A stretch of 64,000 nt of DNA from Candidatus Cloacimonadales bacterium (GTDB lineage: Bacteria > Cloacimonadota > Cloacimonadia > Cloacimonadales > JAFGVF01), in NCBI GenBank assembly GCA_963663475.2, contig CAXXJV010000001.1, positions 1,408,001 through 1,472,000 on the forward strand, written 5' to 3'. This document shows, one piece after another, positions 55,969 through 64,000 of the stretch. Positions within the stretch are counted from its first letter, which is position 1. Each line of letters starts with the position of its first letter. Both the position numbers and the translations under genes were made by a program. The notes beneath the pieces are model-generated. The model ran no database searches. It saw nothing but the letters and a program-made list of their open reading frames with translations, and was not told the origin of the DNA.

Positions 55969-56719
55969 AACAAATATCCCTGTGAAGGGATAAATAGTTT
56001 AGCCCAGGGTAAAAGCCTGAAAGGCTTGCAACCTTGGGTAAGATGGCTTCCATCTTAGAAATTCCCTGTAAGGGATACATAAATAAAATTATCTAACAAA
56101 TAATGAATATTGAATTAATATTTTTTAATTAATATAAGGTGGTAATATCAATGGCACAGTCAGTATCTCAAATTTATATGCATCTTGTCTTTTCTACCAA
56201 GAATAGAGTACCTTTTTTCAAAAATTCTGATATTCGTGATCCATTATATTCATATATTGCCAAAATAATCTACGAAAATGATTCATATCCGATTTGTATT
56301 GGTGGGTCTGAAGATCATATCCATATTTTTTTCAATTTATCAAAGAATATTTGTTTTAAAGATATAATAGGAGAGATTAAGAGATCTACTTCTAAATTGA
56401 TAAAGACTAAGGGTGATGAATATTCAAACTTCTACTGGCAAGCTGGTTATGAAGGATTTTCTGTAGGTCAACAACAGAAGCAAAAAACAATCAATTATAT
56501 TAACAAGCAAAACGAACATCATAAAAAAGGCTCTCCAAGAAGAACTCAGAATGTTCATGACGAAAAACAAAATGAGAATCAATGAATGTTATTTGTGGGA
56601 TTAATTAATTTAACCCTTTCAGGGTAGAGGCTTTATTTATGCTGTCGTACCCAGGGTTGCAAGCCTTTCAGGCTTTTACCCTGGGCTAAACTATTTATCC
56701 CTTTACAGGGATATTTGTT
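55969..56719 (+). mobile_element. REP-associated Y1 (HUH) transposase locus with 72 bp inverted arms
   Basis: 55969-56040 and 56648-56719 are inverted with 2 mismatches and are hairpin-rich. Confidence 0.8.
56151..56604 (+). pseudogene. tnpA: IS200/RAYT-type Y1 transposase with a frameshift near the C-terminus
   Basis: HLVFSTKNR, EDHIHI (HUH), F.WQ.GY..FSV, YI.KQ.EHH; family-like tail LQEELRMF...YLWD* is in another frame ending at 56604. Confidence 0.75.
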
Positions 56720-56881: not shown

Positions 56882-57260
56882 TCACGAATTCTTCTTCAAC
56901 GATTGCTTGACCAAACTCATGATATACTCAAAATCCTCATCATCTTTCAGATTAATCTCATAATCTCCATTTCCCTGATGTCCGACCTGAGAAACATCTC
57001 TCATTATCCCCTTAGGATCATCTAAGTCCCCCTTACGTAGATTAATAAAGAGCTTCAAAGATTTTCTCTGAATAGAAATATCCACAACATTAGTCTTAGA
57101 TACAAAGGCAATATAGAACTTCAAAACTTTGATTTCAATAGAATCAAGATTTAATATCATATTTTTTAATTTTTCATATAAAGCACAAAATTCTTCAGAA
57201 CCCTTGCTCAAATGGTCTTCCTCTCTATATACCTTTATTTCTTTATCAACAATATTACTT
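56882..57260 (-). pseudogene. DUF5655-like domain fragment, apparently 5'-truncated
   Basis: KFYIAF, LDDPKG..RDVS.VGH.GNGDYEI; frame extends upstream (KVYREEDHL) to a stop with no ATG or RBS. Confidence 0.55.
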
Positions 57261-57345: not shown

Positions 57346-57945
57346 CTAATTTAAATCATTCTCCATAACAAATTTAGTTACTGTGAATCTATGAACTTTC
57401 AAATATCTGGCAATAGCACTAATAGATACTCCAGCTTCGACCATCTCTTTAATGATTTTCTCCTTCCCGGTGAGTTTAACTTTAGCAGATTTCCTGCCCT
57501 TAGGACGCCCTAAAATAACTCCTTCGGCTTTCTTTCTAGCAAGAGCTTCTTTAGTTCTTTGAGAAATCAAGTTTCTTTCAATCTCAGCTGCTAAGCCAAA
57601 AGCGAAAGCTAATACTTTGGAATTTATATCATTACCTAATCTATAATTGTCTTTAATTGTCCAGATATTAACCTCTTTTTTCATACAATCATTTAAAATA
57701 CTCATAATCATTAAAAGATTTCTACCTAAACGGGATAATTCAGTGCAAATTAAAATATCATCCGCTTTCATTTTATTTAACAACCTTCCTAATTTTCTTT
57801 TATTTACTTCCTTTGCCCCTGAAATAGTCTCTTCTATCCATTTATCAATTACAATATCTTTCTTTTTACAAAATTCTACTATCTCAAATCTCTGATTTTC
57901 GACTGTCTGTTTATCTGTACTCACCCTAATATAGCCATAAATCAT
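57346..57945 (-). CDS. Mpi-family serine recombinase (DNA invertase)
   Basis: MIYGYIRVSTDKQTVENQRFEI, ELSRLGR, AFAFGLAAEIERNLISQRTKEAL, LGRPKG, C-terminal HTH. Confidence 0.92.
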   Translation of the reverse strand: MIYGYIRVSTDKQTVENQRFEIVEFCKKKDIVIDKWIEETISGAKEVNKRKLGRLLNKMKADDILICTELSRLGRNLLMIMSILNDCMKKEVNIWTIKDNYRLGNDINSKVLAFAFGLAAEIERNLISQRTKEALARKKAEGVILGRPKGRKSAKVKLTGKEKIIKEMVEAGVSISAIARYLKVHRFTVTKFVMENDLN

Positions 57946-58052
57946 TGTTATCTCCTACTAATATTTTAATAATGACAATTATTTAATTAATGAATAATTA
58001 ACAATAATAATTAATTACTAAGATTATAAAACAAGCGAAGATTAGTTTATAT

Positions 58053-58116
58053 GACCTATTTTACGTGGCAGGGATATTAAAAGATATAGAGCTGAATTTG
58101 CGGACTTGTGGTTGAT
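58053..58116 (+). repeat. IR1: 64 bp perfect inverted repeat (partner 60964-61027)
   Basis: GACCTATTTTACGTGGCAGG...GACTTGTGGTTGAT, encoding PILRGRDIKRYRAEFADLWL. Confidence 0.97.
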
Positions 58117-58297
58117 ATGCACTTTTCCGAGTAAACGAATTGATATAGAAAACTATCCAGCAGTTAAAAATTGGCTAAAATCTTTTGGACAAAGATTAGA
58201 ACAGACTGGAAAAAGTTATGAAGACTCAACTGGAAGACTAATAAAATGTAGAAAAAAAACAAATAATAAATGGTTTGAGACACAAGATAGTATAGGA

Positions 58298-58327
58298 TAT
58301 TGGGAGGAATTTAATAGACAGAAAATT
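58298..58327 (+). repeat. IR2: 30 bp perfect inverted repeat (partner 60735-60764)
   Basis: TATTGGGAGGAATTTAATAGACAGAAAATT, encoding YWEEFNRQKI. Confidence 0.97.
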
Positions 58328-58436
58328 GTGTGGAAGGCAGTTGGTCGAAATCTAGGAATATCAATAGTAGATGCTGGGATATATTGTGTCGTTCCATAAA
58401 AGTGGACTAGAAAATTAAACAAACTAGGAGCTTGAA

Positions 58437-58859
58437 ATGGAAAGAAAAAAGAATATGACTCATAAGATTCAAAAGACCTATAGTGAAAGTTTTAAAATTA
58501 AAGTTGTTGACGAAATAGAGAAGGGAGATTTAACTCAAGCTGGAGCTTGTAGACTTTACAATATTTCAGATAGCAATGTGAGTAGATGGGTTGCCAATTA
58601 TGGTATGAATGAACGAGTGGGAAAAAAGGTGGTAGTTATGACCGATAGAGAAATACGTGAATCTGACCTTTTAAGGAAAGAGAATAAGCAGTTAAAACGA
58701 GCATTAGAAGATAGTCAGTTCTCCAACGAAGTTCTAGAGAAATATATTCATTATATTGCAGAACAAAATGGTATTGATTTAAAAAAAAAGATCGATTCAG
58801 GTTTATCAGAAGATACTCAGAAACTCTTGATTTCAAGGTTGCTAAAAGGTCAGGAATAA
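58437..58859 (+). CDS. IS3 OrfA (HTH)
   Basis: YSESFKIKVV...YNI....V.RW; A9G slippery run at 58781-58790. Confidence 0.88.
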   Translation: MERKKNMTHKIQKTYSESFKIKVVDEIEKGDLTQAGACRLYNISDSNVSRWVANYGMNERVGKKVVVMTDREIRESDLLRKENKQLKRALEDSQFSNEVLEKYIHYIAEQNGIDLKKKIDSGLSEDTQKLLISRLLKGQE

Positions 58860-58864
58860 GCCAA

Positions 58865-59650
58865 ATGTGTAGTTTATTACAAGTATCTAAATCAGGTTAC
58901 TATAAATATCTTCAAACTGTCTCCCAGAGTTCTACAAATGACTCCCTATGTCTTTCCAGAGTTAAACAATATAGAAAAATTCAGCCTTATGCAGGCACTT
59001 ATAAATGTTGGAAAATGCTACATAATGATGGTTTTAAAATTGCGAGAAATCATCTTAACTGCCTGCTTAAAGAACATAATATGTTGATCAGGAAGAAGAA
59101 GAAATATTGCAAAACTTCAATATCAGATGGTAGTAAGGTATATCCTAATTTACTTAAAGATACCGAAGTAAAGAGGAAAAATCAAGTTTGGGTAACTGAT
59201 ATTACTTATATTTCTAAAGGCAAAGGGTTTTATTATTTGTTTTTGCTAAGTGATATGTATACTAGACAGATATTGGATTATGAAGTTTCTTCTAATATGT
59301 TGACTGATAATCATATAAGGATGTTAAAAAGACAGCTAAACTATGTTGATAATGCTAACGATCTTATTCATCATTCAGATCATGGTTCTCAATATACAAG
59401 TAATGAGACTATTAGCCTTCTGAAAAAGCATGGTATAAAGATTAGTATGACTGGTGATGGTAAATGCTATGATAACCCTATTGCTGAAAGAATAAACTGC
59501 ACAATGAAGCATGAATTTGGTTTAAATCGGACATTTAGCACTATAGAAAGTCTTAAAAAAGCTACTAAAGATGCAGTAATGATCTATAACTCTCAGAGAC
59601 TTCACAAAAGTTTGGGGTATTTTACTCCAAATGATTTTGCAAATCATTAA
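58865..59650 (+). CDS. IS3 OrfB DDE transposase, in the -1 frame and open from the slippery site
   Basis: WVTDITY, HHSDHGSQY, DNPIAERIN, YN..R.H.SLGY.TP. Confidence 0.92.
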   Translation: MCSLLQVSKSGYYKYLQTVSQSSTNDSLCLSRVKQYRKIQPYAGTYKCWKMLHNDGFKIARNHLNCLLKEHNMLIRKKKKYCKTSISDGSKVYPNLLKDTEVKRKNQVWVTDITYISKGKGFYYLFLLSDMYTRQILDYEVSSNMLTDNHIRMLKRQLNYVDNANDLIHHSDHGSQYTSNETISLLKKHGIKISMTGDGKCYDNPIAERINCTMKHEFGLNRTFSTIESLKKATKDAVMIYNSQRLHKSLGYFTPNDFANH

Positions 59651-60350
59651 AAGAGGTTACCAGATGATGAACAGATACTTAGCTGAATGTATTTTCTTTT
59701 GGAAAATGCGACTAAATTACGAATGCAAAATGGAGTCGACAAAAGAACTCAAAAGTATGAGTAAATGTCTCATTTTTCAAAAGAGATACATGACTCAGGA
59801 TACATAAAAAAGGTGTCCACTATATTGGTACTTGACATATTTATCAGCCCCAGCAGCTTTTATTACATCTAATTGCAATGAATACTTGTTAATGTTTCTT
59901 CTCAGTAATTTTAGTAAATATTACATATATAATCACTCAGATAAAACAGGAGCTGGAGATTTAATGCTCAATATACAATCTCTTATCAAGCTGCCAATTC
60001 CAATAATCTCAGAAGAAATTAATGATTACTTTGTAAAGTTGAATAGTCAAATCATTTCAAATTCTCATAACCTTGCTAATATTGAGATTTTTGTAAATGC
60101 TTTAATATATAAGCTATTCAATTTTAATAAAGAGGAAATTGATTTAATTGACATAGAATTTACAGATTGTTTAACAAGCTTGAAAATTAATTATAAACAA
60201 TATGAAAATATGAGTATTAAAGAAATTGCGCAATACTGCTCAGAATTTGATTATAGAAAAGAAAGTGATTATTATAACTCTTAAATCCCCAAAGGGGAGA
60301 ACTAATTTAGCCATTTTTGGAAATTAGTAGAGTTAAGACATAAGCTAATA

Positions 60351-63300
60351 TCATTTGTATGATTTCAGAAAGGATATATCTTCTTTTGACAACTTGTATA
60401 ATTGATTAATTTTAATATCAATTTCATTTTTGATTGTCATATTTTCATACTTACTTGCTAATGCATTAATATTCTGGGTAATTTCATTGATAATGCTCAT
60501 CGGTGCTTTATATACTGGCAATTTAACTAATGCATGTTTATTGTATTGGTATCCATTTACTCCTAGTTCAATACTGGAATATAATCTTTTGTATGCAAAT
60601 TGAAAAAGTCTTGAGTTAAGTGTCCCAAGTAAATATTCAGGATTTTCAGCTATTATCATGAAACAAGTTTTATCTATCATAAACTTATTATCATCTAATG
60701 CAAATTCAGCTTGCTGTACAGTCTCAGGATATATAATTTTCTGTCTATTAAATTCCTCCCAATAATTTGCACCCCACCTCTGCAAAGCGTACCATTCATA
60801 ACGTATTCCAGTCTCAGATTTGTTTCTATTAGATAGTTGTTCTTTGTAACTTAGTAAATGTCCATAAATAGCTGGATATTGCTCTTGAAAAGCTTGCTCA
60901 GCTATTGGAGAAGCTCCTTTTATATTTGGATCATTTTGTAGAGGAAAATGCCATGGTACATAGATCAACCACAAGTCCGCAAATTCAGCTCTATATCTTT
61001 TAATATCCCTGCCACGTAAAATAGGTCGTATAATTTCAGCAGATTTTGGGTCTTGTCTGATGAGTTCATCTTTCTTAGCTCCACTAATAATAAAGGCTTC
61101 ATTAAATCCTGTTAGAATTCCTCTATTAATGTTTACATCCCAATCTTTGAGGGGAGTACCTATTCTTTCAATTTTTTCTTTGATTCTCATTTCTTCTTGA
61201 GAAGAGATGATAAGGCTTTCTTTACTAAAATTATTGATTACTACAGTGTTTTCAACAAAATAATTGGATAGGTTGCTGTCTTTTAAATAATCTGATCCAA
61301 TAGTACAGGCTTGTAAATAGTGTTTATGGGTAATTTTCTTCTGAGAAAGCAAAATATTGGTATCAACTGTAGCAGAATCAAATACTTTGAAACCTCCAAA
61401 ATCTATTAGTTTAATTGGGTTAGTGTATTTCGCAAAATAATCGCGTAATTTCTCTCCATATTTCGCTCTCATCCATTTATTAGATGTTATGAAGCATAAT
61501 AAACCATATTCTGATAGTATTTGAACTCCTCTTTCATAAAAAATACAATATAGGTCTCCTGTTTTAGCAAAGGAGAGATATTTTTGATTTTCATAGGTTT
61601 CTTGAATTTTCTGACCTGATAGAGTTTGAATTTGAACATACGGTGGATTCCCAATCACAATATCAAAACCTCCATTTTCTTTAAAGACATCAGCGAAGTA
61701 GAGATGCCAGGGGAAGAAGGGTCTAATTTTATCTTTTTTAGTAAACTCGTGAAGTTGAGCTTCAAGTTCTTGGTAGTCAAACTTATATTTTTTCTTTAAC
61801 TGAGCACTTTCTGCTTGGATGTAAGCTTCTCTTTGTTCATGAGTAGGCAGTTGATTTGCAGTGGATATCATCTGATTATAGGCTTGGAAGTATTCTTCTT
61901 TGTCATTCTCAATGCGAGTTTTAAAGATTTTGACGATAGTATCTTCAATTTCATTGCGTAGGGATACTTTTTGGTTTTTATCATTTTCTTTGTAAAGTTT
62001 TTCTTGGAGGTAGTGAAGCTGATCAATCATCTGGTCTTCTTCTAAGAGTAAGGAGTTTTTATTTAATTGTGTAGCCAACTTCTTTTTATCGTTAGTTAGT
62101 GTTTTTTTCTGTTTTTCCAGAGCTTTAATTTGGTCTAAGAAGTCTTGATTTTGGACTGAAGTTTCAGTAAATTCTGCAAAGAACTTCTTTTGAATCATTT
62201 CTACTTGCTGGTTGATATCTGCGATTTTGTTTGTAATTTCTTCATCTTTTTTCTCAAGATCGGAGTACTTTGTTCTTACTTGATTAATATTGATATCCCC
62301 AAATGATTCAATGAGGGAGTTACCTTGCATGAACTTATAATCGAAGTTGGGGAGAGCTTCAGGTATTTCAGCATCAACCACAAGTGATAGCCAGAAACGG
62401 ATTTTAGCAATTTCGATAGCACCATTATCAATATCTACACCATAAATACATTTTTGAATTGTTTCTTTTTTAAGTTTATAGAGGCTAACATGTTCATTGA
62501 GAAATTGATCTTTAATGTAGGAACGAATAGAGACAATCTCGTGGAGGATTCCCATTGGGAAGGCACCTGAGCCAACAGCAGGGTCTGCAATCTTAATATT
62601 AACAAGTAGCTTGTTTACTTCTTCTACAATATCATAGAGTTCATCGAATTGCTTTTCAAATTCTTTTTCCTGTTCATCGTTAGCAAAGTCACCCTTGTTT
62701 AGATAGAGATCTTTATATTCAAAGAGGTGGTCTAGTTTCTCTTCGATATTTTCTTTATCCTGTAGTTTAGTAATCAAGAACTGTTTCAGACTTTCTCTTG
62801 TCATATAATTAACTATTTCTCGTGGAGTATAGAAAGCACCTTTACCTTTTCGGTTTATATCATCTAGTAAATTTTCAAAGACTTTACCCAGCATTTCCGG
62901 GTCGATGGCAATATCTTGTTCAAAGTAAGTATTTTCATCTATGGTGAAGTTATATTGATCAAAGATATCGAGAATACCTGTATTCTTATCATTGGAGAAA
63001 AGCTCATTACTTGGAGCAAAAATAATAGTCTCATCATATTCATAAGGGCATTCAAAGAGACCACCATTTAGATAAGGTATTTTTAAAAAAGCATCATTAA
63101 ATTTAAAGGAATCACCTACTTGGTTTAAACCTTCATAGAAGAGTTTTTCTAAGAACTTATCGAAATAATTATATCCCTCTTTTTGGCATTTTTTAAAACC
63201 CCAACGGAGGAAGTCTTGTCTGCCGTCTGTCCAATCATTGGTATTGCTAGGGTCTCCACCTAACCATCTTTTCTTTTGGAGGAAGTAAAGGAAGGTAATC

Positions 63301-63962
63301 TGACCTAATAATTTACGGGCAAAGATATCAGAGTTAAAGCCTTCGGTTTTAGACATTACTATTTTGAAGTTGTTAGACTTTTCAAACTCATTTATTACTA
63401 AATCATAGAGTTCTTTATATTTATTAAAGAACTCTTTGGTAACTGGTTCAACAGCAAATCTACCCACTAAATCAGCAAAATCTTTTATTTTTGCTGTTCC
63501 GTTTATCTGTTTAGCTTTTACTAATTTATCAAAGAGTGTTCCTAGTTTAGCTTCATTTCCCAAGAGATAGGAATAACGTCTGGGATTTGAGAAAAATTTC
63601 TTAGTCTTTTTATTATCTAATTCTAAATCTATTGTTATCAAGGATAGTCTATAGTTGGCTAAATTAGCTGATGTAAAGAAAACTATGGCTCTATTCTTAT
63701 TGAAAGTAGCTAATATTTTGAAGGCATCACGGGAGATAGTAACACGAGGGTCATTTTCAGAATCATGATGCATCTCAAAAACAGCTAAATCTAAGACTTT
63801 TGAACTTCCTAATAAAGTAACTTGATTTATCTTATTAGCTTTGAAAGATAATTGATCAGTTACATCTTGGATATCTATTTCAAAATCATCTGGTAATAAA
63901 TATGTTTTTAAAAAATCTAAATATTTATCTCTATTGTATTTTTCACTGAATAATGAAATCAT
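60351..63962 (-). CDS. Eco57I-like type IIG restriction-modification enzyme (amino-methyltransferase with C-terminal TRDs)
   Basis: YLNGGLF, GAFYTPREIV, DPAVGSGAF (motif I), GNPPY (motif IV), TaqI_C-like tail. Confidence 0.9.
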   Translation of the reverse strand: MISLFSEKYNRDKYLDFLKTYLLPDDFEIDIQDVTDQLSFKANKINQVTLLGSSKVLDLAVFEMHHDSENDPRVTISRDAFKILATFNKNRAIVFFTSANLANYRLSLITIDLELDNKKTKKFFSNPRRYSYLLGNEAKLGTLFDKLVKAKQINGTAKIKDFADLVGRFAVEPVTKEFFNKYKELYDLVINEFEKSNNFKIVMSKTEGFNSDIFARKLLGQITFLYFLQKKRWLGGDPSNTNDWTDGRQDFLRWGFKKCQKEGYNYFDKFLEKLFYEGLNQVGDSFKFNDAFLKIPYLNGGLFECPYEYDETIIFAPSNELFSNDKNTGILDIFDQYNFTIDENTYFEQDIAIDPEMLGKVFENLLDDINRKGKGAFYTPREIVNYMTRESLKQFLITKLQDKENIEEKLDHLFEYKDLYLNKGDFANDEQEKEFEKQFDELYDIVEEVNKLLVNIKIADPAVGSGAFPMGILHEIVSIRSYIKDQFLNEHVSLYKLKKETIQKCIYGVDIDNGAIEIAKIRFWLSLVVDAEIPEALPNFDYKFMQGNSLIESFGDININQVRTKYSDLEKKDEEITNKIADINQQVEMIQKKFFAEFTETSVQNQDFLDQIKALEKQKKTLTNDKKKLATQLNKNSLLLEEDQMIDQLHYLQEKLYKENDKNQKVSLRNEIEDTIVKIFKTRIENDKEEYFQAYNQMISTANQLPTHEQREAYIQAESAQLKKKYKFDYQELEAQLHEFTKKDKIRPFFPWHLYFADVFKENGGFDIVIGNPPYVQIQTLSGQKIQETYENQKYLSFAKTGDLYCIFYERGVQILSEYGLLCFITSNKWMRAKYGEKLRDYFAKYTNPIKLIDFGGFKVFDSATVDTNILLSQKKITHKHYLQACTIGSDYLKDSNLSNYFVENTVVINNFSKESLIISSQEEMRIKEKIERIGTPLKDWDVNINRGILTGFNEAFIISGAKKDELIRQDPKSAEIIRPILRGRDIKRYRAEFADLWLIYVPWHFPLQNDPNIKGASPIAEQAFQEQYPAIYGHLLSYKEQLSNRNKSETGIRYEWYALQRWGANYWEEFNRQKIIYPETVQQAEFALDDNKFMIDKTCFMIIAENPEYLLGTLNSRLFQFAYKRLYSSIELGVNGYQYNKHALVKLPVYKAPMSIINEITQNINALASKYENMTIKNEIDIKINQLYKLSKEDISFLKSYK

Positions 63963-64000
63963 TTTTTCTCCTTATAGGGTAAATTAATTCTTGAATTAGT

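Follow-up and report, generated by a model that had tools for sequence, protein, structure and literature searches.

Here we describe a locus in the genome of a Candidatus Cloacimonadales bacterium (assembly GCA_963663475.2) in which the gene for a large Eco57I-family adenine methyltransferase faces an inverted, partial and silent copy of its own 3' end, with a serine invertase of the Mpi family next to it. The locus occupies positions 57,346 to 63,962 of a 64,000-nucleotide stretch of contig CAXXJV010000001.1, hereafter the window, and coordinates refer to that stretch unless another locus is named. The evidence supports a gene-altering inversion locus at the DNA-recognition end of the enzyme, adjoining the Mpi-family invertase, and we consider it likely, with a probability of about 0.8, that the locus is a programmed-inversion ('shufflon') switch for the recognition domain of this methyltransferase. 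A first-pass annotation of the window had proposed an inversion locus of this kind, and in support of it the layout recurs in a congener, with the alternative recognition segments in swapped positions, and in 8 of 55 loci anchored on related invertases.

Architecture of the locus and its predicted products

The expressed gene (60351..63962, minus strand) encodes a protein of 1203 aa that Pfam, PADLOC and motif searches identify as a 'type IIG-like' Eco57I-family / TaqI_C methyltransferase. It matches Eco57I (PF07669, 126.5 bits), TaqI_C (PF12950, 55.6 bits, aa 980-1150) and the PADLOC REase_MTase_IIG profile (547.8 bits), and its translation contains DPAVGSGAF and GNPPY motifs; gamma-type adenine methyltransferase motifs and a recognition domain thus lie on one chain. 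The last 224 residues alone cover positions 2-118 of the 118 in the TaqI_C profile, and aa 755-1172 align to the solved adenine methyltransferases 8cxz and 7lni, with the peptides encoded by the two repeats described below falling on conserved stretches.

Two nested inverted repeats are shared by this gene and the silent cassette opposite. An inverted-repeat scan placed IR1 at 58047..58116 (the invertase-proximal arm) and 60964..61033 (the arm within the expressed gene), 70 nt that are 99% complementary with 1 mismatch, and IR2 at 58298..58327 (the silent-cassette arm) and 60735..60764 (again within the expressed gene), 30 nt that are 100% complementary; the arms carry no strand assignment. 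The first-pass annotation had listed IR2 and a perfect 64-nt IR1 core (58053-58116 / 60964-61027), both of which were recovered, the core lying within the longer 70-nt repeat. By our own arithmetic, a perfect 30-nt inverted repeat within 8 kb has a chance expectation of ~1e-10, and a genome-wide search found no further copies of IR1 or IR2 in the 3.3-Mb genome. The reading frame is kept through IR1 and IR2 in both copies, IR1 encoding the peptide PILRGRDIKRYRAEFADLWLI and IR2 the peptide YWEEFNRQKI. The sole mismatch in IR1, at 58052, gives TGA in the silent copy and CGA in the expressed one, so that the silent frame is closed just upstream and is without a start.

Divergence is confined to the segments between and after the repeats, as the first-pass annotation had also noted alongside the conserved in-frame peptides. 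Segment V1, between the repeats (allele A in the expressed gene, 60765-60963, minus strand), is 25% identical between the expressed and the silent copy (66 vs 60 aa), and segment V2, after IR2 (60354-60734 in the expressed gene, minus strand), is 28% identical. Both segments had been labelled target recognition domains (TRD1 and TRD2), a label that has to be given up. Because IR1, V1, IR2 and V2 all lie inside one TaqI_C domain (aa 980-1150), V1 and V2 read, from the domain match, as two halves of a single recognition domain plus the C-terminal tail, unlike the two TRDs of HsdS. A Pfam scan found no HsdS (Methylase_S) domain in either copy, both of which carry TaqI_C.

The silent cassette lies on the plus strand, in two pieces. 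Piece 1 (58055..58384) runs from the IR1 peptide through V1 allele B (58117-58297) and IR2 into the silent V2, of which it includes the first 19 codons, and is an open frame without a start that matches TaqI_C weakly (E 0.0096); piece 2 (59841..60284) holds the remainder of the silent V2, including its stop. Between them sits an IS3-family insertion sequence (IS) of 1453 bp (58385..59837, plus strand), recognised by its domains, its copies and its ends. Its orfA spans 58437-58859 (plus strand), the frame of orfB, which overlaps it and has an A-run in the shared stretch, is open from 58778, and the domains HTH_Tnp_1 and rve are accompanied by a match to the IS3 transposase model NF033516 of 241.2 bits (cut-off 160). 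The ends are TG..CA, with imperfect terminal inverted repeats and a target duplication, TAT, at 58382-58384 and 59838-59840. Eight full copies on contig C1, which define the ends of the element, are at least 99.4% identical, and the insertion is therefore recent. When the IS and one TAT were removed in silico, a single open frame of 258 aa resulted, colinear with the expressed C-terminus. In metagenome run X1, from a close relative, one contig joins 58380 to 59837 and is free of the IS, which indicates that an intact cassette exists in nature. The first-pass description of a start-less plus-strand cassette encoding an alternative C-terminus, with in-frame repeats, therefore stands except for its continuity, the IS that splits the cassette having been missed.

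The invertase (57346..57945, minus strand) is an intact protein of 199 aa, assigned by PF00239 and NF009949. It scores 339.8 bits (cut-off 272) on NF009949, the NCBIfam model of the Mpi family, aligning through residues 1-196 to positions 1-196 of the 203-position profile, and matches the Resolvase domain PF00239 with 123.7 bits over residues 2-143. The translation begins MIYGYIRVSTDKQ, with a YxRVS-type motif at the N-terminus that presumably holds the catalytic serine. The open reading frame (ORF) starts 101 bp outside IR1, in agreement with the serine recombinase reported at ~100 bp by the first-pass annotation, and it is the only match to the NF009949 family in the genome.

Taken as a working switch, the Mpi-family invertase would recombine the arms of each repeat, IR1 with IR1 and IR2 with IR2, and we infer that it is the catalyst at both. 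Exchange would swap either the whole C-terminal TaqI_C domain or its distal half only with the promoter-less, start-less inverted cassette, and would alter the DNA motif that is methylated and protected, the V1 and V2 alleles presumably reading different motifs.

The products of the four ARRANGEMENTS were computed by in-silico flips at IR1 and IR2. The present form, allele A with V2, is full length at 1203 aa, and the double flip yields allele B with V2, also full length at 1197 aa. A flip at IR1 alone gives allele B with a truncated silent V2 (1093 aa) and a flip at IR2 alone gives allele A with the same truncated segment (1099 aa), both products ending 4 codons into the IS. Since the silent V2 is cut by the IS, only 2 of the 4 arrangements encode a full-length product, and the four TRD1/TRD2 combinations that had been proposed are not available to this genome. 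One flip at either repeat would yield a truncated, presumably inactive enzyme, and the route between the full-length forms A+V2 and B+V2 would pass through an OFF intermediate; with only these two forms full length, the locus would be a specificity switch with an obligatory truncated intermediate.

That the other full-length form requires two flips, and that either single flip gives a protein of 1093 or 1099 aa, also raises the possibility that the locus, as it now stands with the IS, serves chiefly to turn the entire defence module ON and OFF as a phase switch, with methylation and restriction both silenced by one flip. Comparable unstable '1-inversion' intermediates of PglX appear in the part of Milman, Yelin and Kishony (2023, Nucleic Acids Research; PMC9881135) that deals with that gene. 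There is, however, no sign that the truncated forms occur or are tolerated, an accident is a simpler account of the insertion than an adaptation, and the IS-free cassette is present in a close relative. We therefore regard a primary ON/OFF role as quite improbable and favour a switch of specificity.

Related loci within and beyond the phylum

Matches to the methyltransferase were found in 23 of 41 related genomes. One of the same genus (G006, locus L014) has the same gene order, with a gene for a PLD-SNF2 protein, one for a methyltransferase of 1106 aa, an inverted cassette of 224 aa and an invertase that shares 88% identity with that of the window, and its repeats measure 70 nt at 97% (IR1) and 38 nt at 100% (IR2). 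Comparison with related genomes was a check suggested by the first-pass annotation, and here it revealed the V1 alleles in swapped positions: allele A, expressed in the window genome (G000), is silent in G006 (98% identity), and allele B, silent in the window, is expressed in G006 (95% identity). Allele B is also expressed, at 97% identity, in L072, a single 1000-bp contig that a metagenome search for the IR2 pattern returned and whose enzyme body shares 92% identity with that of the window. L072 was considered as a same-strain flip and rejected, and serves for allele comparison only.

Three different V2 segments, with no more than 21-27% identity among them, are found joined to allele B, which points to separate histories of V1 and V2 with the junction at IR2. 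Judged from these sequences, exchange has taken place in nature at the boundary formed by IR2, and we take it to have occurred at both repeats. The IR2 arms differ at 2 positions between the window genome and G006 and are identical within each, a pattern that we read as concerted evolution of the arms.

The window and L014 also differ sharply in how far their parts have diverged: the N-terminal two-fifths of the methyltransferase (aa 5-551) share only 36% identity, far below the V1 alleles (95-98%), the invertase (88%) and IR1. On this comparison the methyltransferase gene seems to be a mosaic, the switch module moving between different enzyme bodies.

Within the phylum, close relatives of the invertase were found in 4 of 232 genomes. 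The loci of the other relatives of this group (a second site in G003, and G202), which are short at 3.0-3.6 kb, showed no match to the enzyme or a TRD. Outside the phylum, the nearest invertases, at 77-78% identity, belong to records titled Flavobacteriaceae, Runella, Emticicia and Balneola, and the module has probably moved horizontally. Among the 55 invertase-anchored loci, 16 have adjacent matches to the enzyme body or TRD, and the 8 in which the layout is complete, with gene, inverted TRD and invertase, are from other phyla. Repeats are present in 10 of 15 loci examined; in three (L017, L027 and L065) they lie at the same two peptide motifs as in the window, and a repeat of the IR2 type occurs in a further three (L026, L056 and L021).

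Two Bacteroidia records (L032 and L033) have an inverted repeat, of 35 and 57 nt respectively, beside a related invertase but at the GNPPY methyltransferase motif. The fragment inverted in these loci extends over part of the catalytic domain; the switch is of the same kind but is cut at a different point.

In a separate observation on the cassettes, a search with silent piece 1 returned, among its 120 best database matches, 97 proteins with lengths of 198-678 aa, for nearly all of which TaqI_C is the only annotation. Many such short TaqI_C-only database proteins are likely to be mis-called silent cassettes or fragments from contig ends.

Evidence bearing on current inversion

Several observations weigh against an invertase-driven switch that is still at work, and they concern the repeats, the sequencing runs and the cassette itself. 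When IR1 and IR2 were compared in 4 loci, the best core common to both matched at 10 of 14 positions and was inconsistent among loci, and by eye neither repeat shows what we take to be the Mpi consensus of Bacteroides fragilis. Such a lack of a common core could be understood if the arms were exchanged by general homologous recombination or gene conversion over the conserved peptide-coding stretches, with the invertase serving another target; the repeats do coincide with the most conserved peptide motifs of TaqI_C, and the 64-70 nt of IR1 are long enough for RecA-type exchange. IR2, however, is only 24-38 nt in all loci, which is short for such exchange. The invertase is the genome's sole member of its family, its position and orientation beside such cassettes are kept in 8 complete and 8 partial loci of the 55, and Mpi-family recombinases are enriched beside inversion-targeted genes, according to the text on Table 2 of PMC9881135. 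These findings make homologous recombination a very improbable source of the exchange and favour inversion by the adjacent invertase.

Flipping was looked for in the assembled Logan contigs of four runs (X1, X17, X18 and X19) of the organism or its close kin, assemblies of a kind that drops rare variants. No flipped junction was found in the contigs of these runs, the only joint listed being the IS-free one of X1. In X18, contigs at 58087-58432 and 59809-60993 read through the two IR2 arms, both in the reference arrangement, and a 64-nt contig of the same run, at 60964-61027, fits the perfect IR1 core. A search of silent piece 1 against 5.8 billion proteins returned no near-identical long protein, the best match being the G006 enzyme at 88%, so that no same-species product with allele B expressed is on record. 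The IS within the spare cassette implies that selection there is at least relaxed. Lastly, no invertase was found in the 14-16 kb examined at the methyltransferase orthologues of G003 and G027, the former sharing 81% identity with ours over aa 1-992 (or 88% over aa 1-875 in a tblastn comparison) and having a different C-terminus, and the switch is therefore dispensable.

Other irregularities in the assembled contigs were also considered. Contigs of X17, X19 and X1 stop at the edges of IR2 and IR1; breaks at the IR2 edges were rejected as a hint of recombinant words, since one sequencing error could give the same break. A loose end of X1 behind 58053 was rejected as a flipped junction, its 24 letters matching a repeat with 3 approximate copies in the window. 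Another loose end of X1, the 30 letters behind 58333, has no match among 79 loci and may represent a further V2 allele of another strain. The spacer between the convergent stops (60273-60312) is a short hairpin-forming dispersed repeat with 12 other copies in the genome at 87-91% identity, which accounts for raised contig depth and loose ends there in the mapped runs.

The IS inside the spare cassette, the existence of orthologues without the switch and the lack of any alternative arrangement in the contigs of the four runs or among database proteins could together mean that the locus is a frozen relic, an ancestral working switch that no longer flips in this strain, with the IS as a first step of decay. 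Set against this, the ORF of the invertase is complete, with a score that exceeds the family cut-off, the repeats are well kept (1 mismatch in the 70 nt of IR1, 0 in the 30 nt of IR2), and the IS, with copies at least 99.4% identical, is recent and absent from the near-identical cassette of X1. A relic appears unlikely, and programmed inversion presumably still goes on in this genome.

Known systems, DNA cleavage and genomic surroundings

The locus class, its PLD+SNF2 partner and its link with Mpi-family recombinases have been in print since 2023 (PMC9881135). According to the sections of that paper on inversion targets, Eco57I-domain proteins are enriched among them with Mpi-family recombinases as neighbours, and long reads confirmed an inversion in a Cj0031-like Type II restriction-modification (RM) gene of Bacteroides ovatus (CP083813.1:5322008-5329826) that has a PLD+SNF gene immediately upstream, with homologues in three phyla. 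Features of the same class are found in the window, where the repeats overlap the coding sequence, a shorter inverted partial copy of the 3' end is present, a recombinase is adjacent and a PLD+SNF helicase gene lies upstream. Likened by its published description, the B. ovatus locus shares with ours a large Eco57I-type methyltransferase as target, PLD+SNF2 upstream, a recombinase next door and the duplication of only the 3' part, inverted and promoter-less. The window locus differs in the KilA-N ORF between helicase and methyltransferase, in its Cloacimonadota host and in the IS in the spare cassette.

Invertible hsdS genes offer a second comparison, for which the surveyed material in PMC7672463 and PMC11741434 gives wider background on invertible specificity genes. 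As described for the pneumococcal SpnD39III system, an expressed gene and silent partial copies of it trade recognition modules by means of inverted repeats that lie within the coding sequence, and the outcome, alternative methylation and restriction specificities, is shared with the locus described here. The target in hsdS systems is a separate subunit with two TRDs, whereas here it is a single-chain methyltransferase in which one TaqI_C domain is swapped in halves. In the survey data of PMC7672463, the recombinases of invertible hsdS genes are mostly of the tyrosine type, with 6 serine-recombinase loci.

The pglX gene of the type 1 BREX (bacteriophage exclusion) system of Lacticaseibacillus rhamnosus, as presented in PMC9881135, resembles our locus in its two nested inversions, its non-functional single-flip intermediates and its large Eco57I-related target. 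Unlike pglX products, the protein described here falls below the PglX cut-offs, and identity with PglX was rejected on the scores (69.5 bits for NF033452 against a cut-off of 500; 61.3 against 400 and 58.2 against 900 for the other PglX models); no BREX partner genes were found among the neighbours scanned. A reading as DISARM (defence island system associated with restriction-modification) was likewise rejected, the matches to DrmMI and DrmD being partial only and the neighbours being ars genes, Lon and IS elements.

Mpi of Bacteroides fragilis is a master invertase that flips many polysaccharide promoters genome-wide. The invertase of the window belongs to the same recombinase family by a curated hidden Markov model and is likewise a small serine recombinase of ~200 aa, but it lies beside one coding-sequence target, and its repeats have no other copies in the genome. 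Cj0031 of Campylobacter jejuni is reportedly a phase-variable Type IIG enzyme turned ON and OFF through a polyG tract; likened by description, it is also a large single-chain methyltransferase of the RM type, and differs from ours in that the window locus uses inversion instead of polyG.

Set beside these systems, the locus opens no new question. It adds a documented case, from a Cloacimonadota bacterium of anaerobic and wastewater-type habitats, of a defence methyltransferase whose specificity would be rewritable by inversion. It also provides a natural example of an IS crippling half of a switch's repertoire, and comparative evidence that the halves of a recognition domain are shuffled independently.

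The designation 'Type IIG' given by the first-pass annotation is apt in one respect, in that methyltransferase motifs and a recognition domain occur in one chain, and is uncertain in another, since no conserved nuclease residues were found and a PLD+SNF2 gene lies upstream. A structure model of aa 1-360 (predicted local distance difference test score, pLDDT, 80.1) matches the MmeI spacer and the start of its methyltransferase domain over residues 138-343 (Z 8.8), and over residues 1-169 has weak matches to nuclease-like folds (Z 4.0-4.8; 9y1l, DrdV 7lo5, BpuSI 3s1s and 3ijm). A Foldseek search of this N-terminal model against the PDB returned nothing at E 0.001 or better, none of the first 135 positions in an alignment of 14 sequences holds an acidic or lysine residue that is invariant, and no conserved catalytic nuclease residues are apparent in the N-terminal domain.

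Upstream of the methyltransferase, an ORF of 125 aa with a KilA-N domain (63959..64000, minus strand, where only its 3' end lies before it runs off the window; 959-1336 in locus L001) overlaps the methyltransferase start. It is preceded by the PLD+SNF2 helicase gene (L001 1348-4611, same strand as the methyltransferase), whose product of 1087 aa contains PLDc_2, SNF2-rel_dom and Helicase_C domains. The methyltransferase most likely cooperates with this helicase-nuclease, and DNA cleavage may reside in the PLD-SNF2 partner instead of the methyltransferase chain.

Given that allele B has three unrelated V2 partners and that the two-repeat design recurs across phyla, the TaqI_C halves could be independent modules that combine freely, each recognising a portion of the target, in a nuclease-less enzyme that acts as an exchangeable specificity and methylation subunit of the PLD-SNF2 motor nuclease, the IS adding an obligatory OFF state. 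We put this extended proposal forward tentatively, as possible but on balance doubtful. If true, the restriction system would have two components and would differ from classical Type IIG.

A promoter and terminator scan gave 26 sites against 22.5 expected and is uninformative. Just past the right end of the window (L001 4760-8200), an arsenic-resistance cluster is divergent from the PLD-SNF2 gene and is followed by a gene for Lon protease; the cluster encodes an ArsR-type regulator, an ArsP-type permease, an arsenate reductase of the low-molecular-weight phosphatase type and an SBF/ACR3-type transporter. On the other side, downstream of the invertase, lie a DUF5655 fragment and an IS200-type gene. 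The DUF5655 ORF (109 aa, 56882-57211, minus strand) matches only the last third of the PADLOC profile PDC-S18 (196-301 of 302) and is probably a truncated remnant. The IS200-type Y1 transposase ORF (56139-56585, PF01797) is flanked by 44-nt inverted repeats (56000-43 / 56645-88, 95%). About a dozen copies of the 44-mer, full or partial, are spread over the genome, among them another pair ~650 bp apart (C1 2619030-2619720), and the arrangement of transposase and 44-mers in the window (56000-56688) resembles that of a REP-associated (repetitive extragenic palindrome), RAYT-like transposase.

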